Below, in pieces: positions 50,200 through 50,364 of a DNA stretch of 64,000 bases. This stretch comes from Sphyrna mokarran (lineage: Eukaryota): the NCBI GenBank assembly GCA_024679065.1, contig JAGIQG010000003.1:21948001-22012000 (forward strand). The letters are read 5' to 3'. The position numbers and the translations under genes were made by a program. The notes under the pieces are model-generated. The model saw only the letters and a list, made by a program, of their open reading frames with translations. It did no database searches and was not told the origin of the DNA. Each line of letters starts with the position of its first letter. Positions within the stretch are counted from its first letter, which is position 1.

Positions 50200-50364
50200 C
50201 CATGTTATCCTGTCACTGGGTTACTGTCTTTTTAATGAGCTCTCCTGGAGATCTCTCTCCAATAACGACCTTTTGCTGACCTCGGCGATCGAGGGCGCTT
50301 CTGACACTTCATCAGAGGGAGGGAGGGAGAGAGAGAGAGAGAAAGAAAGGGAAGGGAAAGGAAA
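50200..50364 (+). other. MECOM: Putative EVI1 non-coding exon 1a
   Basis: Contains the RARE and a GA-rich tract and ends at AAA|GTAAGC (50365). TTTAAAT lies at 50188-50194 just upstream. The start position is a guess. Confidence 0.45.
50266..50282 (-). promoter_or_regulatory. DR5 retinoic acid response element (AGGTCA gcaaa AGGTCG)
   Basis: The + strand reads CGACCT-TTTGC-TGACCT: two nuclear-receptor half sites with a 5-nt spacer, inside the putative exon 1a. Confidence 0.75.

Follow-up and report, generated by a model that had tools for sequence, protein, structure and literature searches.

Gene structure at the shark EVI1 locus

The stretch of Sphyrna mokarran DNA that was analysed as a whole (64 kb, hereafter the window) contains one coding exon of MECOM, the gene of EVI1, together with a putative non-coding first exon and several predicted regulatory features, which are listed below.

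54032–54163, plus strand: MECOM exon 2 (EVI1 numbering), 132 nt, 44 PR-domain codons, Pfam PF21549
50085–50892, plus strand: putative first exon of EVI1, non-coding and similar to exon 1a, with a projected 5′ end and a used donor at the 3′ end
50893–54031, plus strand: 3139-nt intron separating the first exon from exon 2, with a GT..AG joint in run X1
50266–50282, minus strand: inverted DR5 retinoic acid response element (RARE), almost certainly the orthologue of the human/mouse EVI1 RARE, with 15/17 identity and both differences in the spacer
50291–50310, plus strand: conserved block, possibly a partner-factor site, matched at 15/20 by the human ChIP primer EVI1_RARE-R
47475–47487, minus strand: CTCF-like core, a candidate orthologue of the human docking site, with a perfect match to the core consensus
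38001–53000, no strand: CpG-undepleted 15-kb domain with sharp edges, defined by the CpG observed/expected ratio, which covers the EVI1 promoter and the region upstream

A comparison of the exon at 54032–54163 with known proteins confirms EVI1 (MECOM) as the host gene, as the sequence-only reading had proposed: the match to MECOM (PDB 6xau) has an E value of 2e-19. PRDM16 was rejected as the host gene, the same exon matching it with an E value of 2e-9 versus 2e-19 for MECOM. Thirteen of 14 candidate protein matches to exon 2 passed, and all of them are MECOM/EVI1; 12 bear the name MECOM or MDS1 and EVI1 complex locus, and the remaining one is named as the EVI1 protein thereof. The identity of the exon 2 peptide is 98% in Scyliorhinus and Chiloscyllium and 95% in Heptranchias, Mobula and Amblyraja, and outside the elasmobranchs it is 89% in Callorhinchus and 76% in Polypterus; these values assign the window to an elasmobranch, most likely a shark. 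One extra residue is present in exon 2 of human MECOM and of Callorhinchus and is absent from the elasmobranch proteins compared, which looks like a one-codon loss in the elasmobranch PR domain (44 codons in this exon). Exon 2 is common to the MDS1-EVI1 and EVI1 transcripts, and it stands alone in the window, where tblastn searches with four of the 13 proteins reveal no other MECOM coding exon.

Four of seven sequencing runs of relatives, none recorded as RNA, were compared with the window. Two of these (X1 and X2) are RNA-like by behaviour, X1 having depth in 6 of the 30 bins and X2 in 8; their cover of the intron consists of short repeat matches only, and their exon 2 continues into exon 3 sequence. 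The other two (X4 and X7) are DNA-like, and the X7 pieces span 51047–54400. An X1 contig covers 50535–50890 and is spliced to exon 2 over the 3139-nt GT..AG intron. This joint between 50892 and exon 2 is seen in one of the four runs (X1) and is absent from the DNA-like X4 and X7. In a second X1 contig, exon 2 is joined to an MDS1-type upstream peptide, as judged by eye from the translation against shark MECOM. Because X1 contains both the first exon–exon 2 joint and the MDS1-type–exon 2 joint, this relative makes both 5′ forms. None of the nine ATGs in the first exon and exon 2 is in frame, and eight in-frame stops are present in the first exon, the last at 50887; the form spliced from 50892 to exon 2 is therefore PR-less, and its start is expected in exon 3. 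In a relative, a non-coding first exon is joined to exon 2 by splicing, which gives a PR-less EVI1-type transcript.

The 5′ end of the first exon at 50085 was projected from the offset of the human RARE (+182). The X2 contigs lie at 50084–50269, 50526–50678 and 50684–50846. The start of the first of these, 1 nt from the projected start, was rejected as evidence for the start site, since it comes from a single contig with a depth of 3.2. The RNA-like pieces flank the RARE and reach 4 nt into it, and among the matches listed none bridges 50270–50525; the RARE likely lies inside exon 1a. In the DNA-like X4 and X7 the RARE is uncovered, which is uninformative either way. By eye, a donor-like GT at approximately 50365 could end a shorter first exon; together with another at approximately 51036, the former lying within the putative first exon and the latter shortly after its end, it could mark alternatives like human 1b/1d.

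A review (PMC10553128) mentions a docking site for CTCF that lies upstream of EVI1 in human, and the enhancer-docking site is placed 2.6 kb upstream, in a “forward” orientation, in PMC8479123. In the shark, the core at 47475–47487 is the only match to a CTCF core consensus in the 64 kb at no more than one mismatch, with 0.02 matches expected and matches in 2 of 100 shuffles. The core is located 2598–2610 nt upstream of the projected start at 50085 and points away from the gene. Human EVI1 is presumably on the minus strand; if so, the orientation of the human CTCF site agrees with that in the shark. The spacer of the human CTCF sgRNA matches the flank of the shark core at 10/19 positions at best, which equals background, and no flank homology is found. 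Since this spacer does not align and real CTCF sites are commoner than the shuffles imply, the core is regarded as a positional candidate only for the orthologue of the human EVI1 enhancer-docking site. An 8-mer resembling the CTCF upstream motif is present 9 nt before the core, with a match of 7/8, and was chosen after looking.

The projected offset of exon 2 from the start is +3948. Human position +3903 is taken by us to lie close to the start of exon 2. The cloned human region ended at this position (PMC2779989). The CpG observed/expected ratio is 0.58 in 38001–53000 versus 0.23 in the other 49 kb of the window; the domain is probably unmethylated in the germ line and resembles a methylation valley. 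Other features of the window include a tandem array of ~39-nt units at 14314–14645, which is visible as repeated peptides in the list of open reading frames, related SINE-like repeats (38220–38340, 45590–45880, 63340–63570 and 18880–19290), a LINE-like coding fragment at 21022–21270, and an AT-rich region with a strong positive GC skew of up to 0.5 at 2001–8000. An Rfam search of the window gave 0 matches.

The inverted DR5 element and its mammalian counterparts

The sequence-only reading had described AGGTCA-N5-AGGTCG on the antisense strand, and the minus strand at 50266–50282 reads AGGTCA-GCAAA-AGGTCG. One hexamer is perfect, and the other has a single mismatch to the (A/G)G(G/T)TCA-type half-site; the mismatched base is identical to that in the functional human site (PMC2779989). 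For the relaxed DR5 pattern, 0.21 matches are expected per window and 21 of 100 window shuffles contain one, and five DR5s with no more than one mismatch to RGKTCA are found in the window. Taken as a bare motif, the shark DR5 is not beyond chance. The case for the element stands on orthology and not on the motif. At 50266–50267, the base at which the second half-site departs from the consensus makes a CpG that is present in shark, mouse and human, and one common transition there would give the perfect consensus; this concerns a single base and is a weak observation.

The human RARE, which that reading had cited as known, is documented: exon 1a of human EVI1 contains an inverted DR5 at +182 to +198 (PMC2779989), and the 17-mer of mouse Prdm3/Mecom is the same as the human one (PMC7582457). 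The claim depended on an alignment to this human element, and 15 of the 17 bases are identical in the shark. Both half-sites and the inverted orientation are identical to those of human and mouse, and three of the five spacer bases are shared. When the human 17-mer is searched for with up to three mismatches, the shark element is the sole match in the window, and 19 of 100 shuffles contain a match at that threshold. A match of at least 15/17 on the sense strand within the 5 kb that precede exon 2 is expected 5e-4 times and occurs in 0 of 3000 Markov simulations. The distance from the RARE to the start of exon 2, which lies downstream, is 3766 nt.

As an independent test of the flanks, five human primers were scanned over 127,962 positions of the window. 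The primer EVI1_RARE-R (human positions 208–227) matches 15/20 bases at 50291–50310, the single best of the 127,962 positions; at neighbouring offsets it matches 3–9/20, and the chance of a 15/20 match within seven offsets is ~2e-5. The conserved block lies 8 nt downstream of the shark RARE versus 9 nt in human, 1 nt off the prediction, provided that the two numberings in PMC2779989 agree, as their shared position 15 suggests. The other four of the five primers (RARE-F, 1a-F, 1b-F and 1d-F) have no positional match in the window, and most of exon 1 therefore does not align between human and shark. In the immediate flanks of the RARE, 2/17 upstream bases and 3/8 downstream bases are shared with mouse, which is the background level. 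Because the flanks are at background and the hexamers are identical, conservation is limited to both hexamers and a single block close by. A pattern in which the receptor-binding letters and a nearby block appear to be retained is as expected for selected binding sites.

From these alignments, the element at 50266–50282 is almost certainly the true orthologue of the known mammalian EVI1 RARE. A metagenome scan for further vertebrate copies yielded 17 loci, all of which are unrelated (upstream identity of 8–15 of 40, without a MECOM exon). With two lineages compared, elasmobranch and mammal, the EVI1 RARE is probably as old as the jawed vertebrates. The sequence-only reading had placed direct retinoic acid (RA) control of the PR-less isoform before the chondrichthyan/osteichthyan split; this is a reasonable prediction from the sequence conservation.

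Probable retinoic acid input to the internal EVI1 promoter

The human evidence comes from ChIP and reporter assays: the RARE is bound by RARalpha and RXR in ChIP, is required for the ATRA response and is repressive without ligand, and mutation of the site raises basal activity (PMC2779989). In human cells, the EVI1 variants have risen within 3 h, whereas MDS1-EVI1 does not rise before 24 h (PMC2779989). The mouse promoter responds ~40-fold to RA, and mutation of either half-site does not eliminate its RAR-driven activity (PMC7582457). The cells behind these known elements are a human teratocarcinoma line (PMC2779989) and mouse P19 (PMC7582457). In the lateral mesoderm of Xenopus, disruption of RA lowers mecom (bioRxiv 10.1101/2022.06.21.496994), and in the zebrafish pronephros the mecom domain is shrunk by RA and expanded by DEAB, an effect that could be an indirect patterning shift, as the review leaves open (PMC4493457). 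The RA effect on mecom differs in sign between tissues in fish and frog. In a zebrafish endoderm study with RA RNA-seq and RAR ChIP-seq (PMC8608873), neither the text nor nine supplements name mecom; the positive control cyp26a1 appears in six of the files, and the full peak list carries no gene names. A presumed zebrafish mecom gene id has 0 matches in these data. No RAR binding or RA-response data for EVI1 in cartilaginous fish were found in the literature searched.

When the orthology is set beside the mammalian data, the element at 50266–50282 is probably a working RA-inducible element in the shark. It would correspond by descent to the mammalian EVI1 exon-1a RARE, both going back to the last ancestor shared by all jawed vertebrates. 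An RXR-RAR heterodimer would most likely be on the site constantly, and this heterodimer would repress the internal EVI1 promoter without ligand and activate it with retinoic acid, producing the PR-less EVI1 transcript. The transcript would start ~180 nt upstream of the RARE and be spliced from 50892 to exon 2, with MDS1-EVI1 starting elsewhere. If the known DR5 polarity, with RXR 5′ and RAR 3′ (PMC7515732), is applied to the shark site, RXR would occupy the 5′ consensus half-site (50277–50282) and RAR the 3′ non-consensus half-site (50266–50271). Binding, repression and activation as in human are presumed to carry over to the shark.

An orthologous and receptor-bound site could also be mainly repressive or gating in the shark, with RA not acting as a direct inducer of EVI1. 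The occupant would then be unliganded RXR-RAR or another direct-repeat nuclear receptor, such as NR2F, which binds direct repeats. Such a role is in line with the rise in basal activity when the human site is mutated (PMC2779989), with the lowering of zebrafish kidney mecom by RA (PMC4493457) and with the absence of mecom from the RA-regulated genes that are named for zebrafish endoderm (PMC8608873). We nevertheless regard it as unlikely: the exact 5-nt spacing and both half-sites are preserved, which is an RXR-RAR signature, the human and mouse promoters are RA-inducible (PMC2779989, PMC7582457), and RA may act on the zebrafish domain indirectly, through a shift in patterning (PMC4493457).

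The location of the element in or beside transcribed sequence, with a second conserved block (50291–50310) behind it, is also compatible with an orthologous sequence preserved as a 5′ UTR RNA feature or a core-promoter element, the RARE function being a gain of mammals only. This is quite improbable, as identity follows both hexamers exactly while the spacer has changed and the flanks are at background, and no Rfam family was found in the window. Orthology itself would fail if the DR5 had arisen by chance or convergence, without homology to the human site. DR5-like motifs are certainly frequent (21 of 100 shuffles, and five one-mismatch DR5s in the window), no intermediate taxa are aligned, and the metagenome loci (17/17) are unrelated; however, the chance values, ~5e-4 for the core match and ~2e-5 for the block in the flank, which is independent of it, at the same gene and in the same orientation, make such an origin very improbable.

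For the preferred reading of an inherited, RA-inducible element, the retention of exact half-sites between shark and mammal while the flanks drifted argues for old purifying selection on the control that RA exerts over the oncogenic, PR-less isoform of EVI1. MECOM would join the few genes with a RARE whose conservation extends outside the tetrapods, and the element gives a precise target for a knock-in. A puzzle is also sharpened: RA raises EVI1 expression in cells of mammals and in the mesoderm of the frog, but it shrinks the mecom domain of the zebrafish kidney. We propose, tentatively, that the internal EVI1 promoter may be an ancestral jawed-vertebrate module with constrained spacing. Its conceivable layout, which we hold with some doubt, would comprise an upstream-facing CTCF site at −2.6 kb, the start, the RXR-RAR DR5 at ~+180 with its non-consensus CpG half-site preserved, the partner block directly after it, and exon 2 at ~+3.9 kb. 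If this is true, the RA input and the CTCF site, through which leukaemic 3q26 rearrangements capture enhancers, would both date back to the origin of jawed vertebrates and would jointly make PR-less EVI1; the CTCF candidate points to an early origin of the leukaemia docking site as well.

Comparison with known response elements and docking sites

The shark element resembles the human exon-1a RARE (PMC2779989) in being an inverted DR5 close to the 5′ end of a first exon, non-coding and in the shark putative, with exon 2 downstream; it differs in two spacer bases and in that the downstream block is 1 nt closer. The first exon is ~808 nt in the shark versus an estimated ~1012 nt in human. The mouse Prdm3/Mecom RARE, which PMC7582457 places upstream of “noncoding exon 1”, is identical to the shark element at 15/17 positions, with unrelated immediate flanks (2/17 and 3/8). 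The candidate CTCF site shares with the human EVI1 docking site (PMC8479123) a core located 2.6 kb upstream of the start (projected in the shark), in the same orientation if human EVI1 is on the minus strand, whereas the human sgRNA spacer does not align and the shark site is a prediction from sequence.

No paper on the conservation of the EVI1 RARE in cartilaginous fish was found in a search that reached few subscription papers. The RARE is not discussed in the available text of PMC5984435 and PMC3595034, and mecom is not named in the main text and four supplements of PMC7259794, in which only six RAREs with an RA-regulated nearest gene are conserved to zebrafish. The DR5s of Meis1/2, Nr2f1/2 and Hox/skap1 (PMC7259794, PMC8608873) likewise lie close to the 5′ end of genes for developmental transcription factors. 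These elements are conserved between fish and mammals, whereas the conservation of the EVI1 element extends to cartilaginous fish. The EVI1 RARE was known from human and mouse, and what is new here is its deep orthologue in the shark, identified by alignment.
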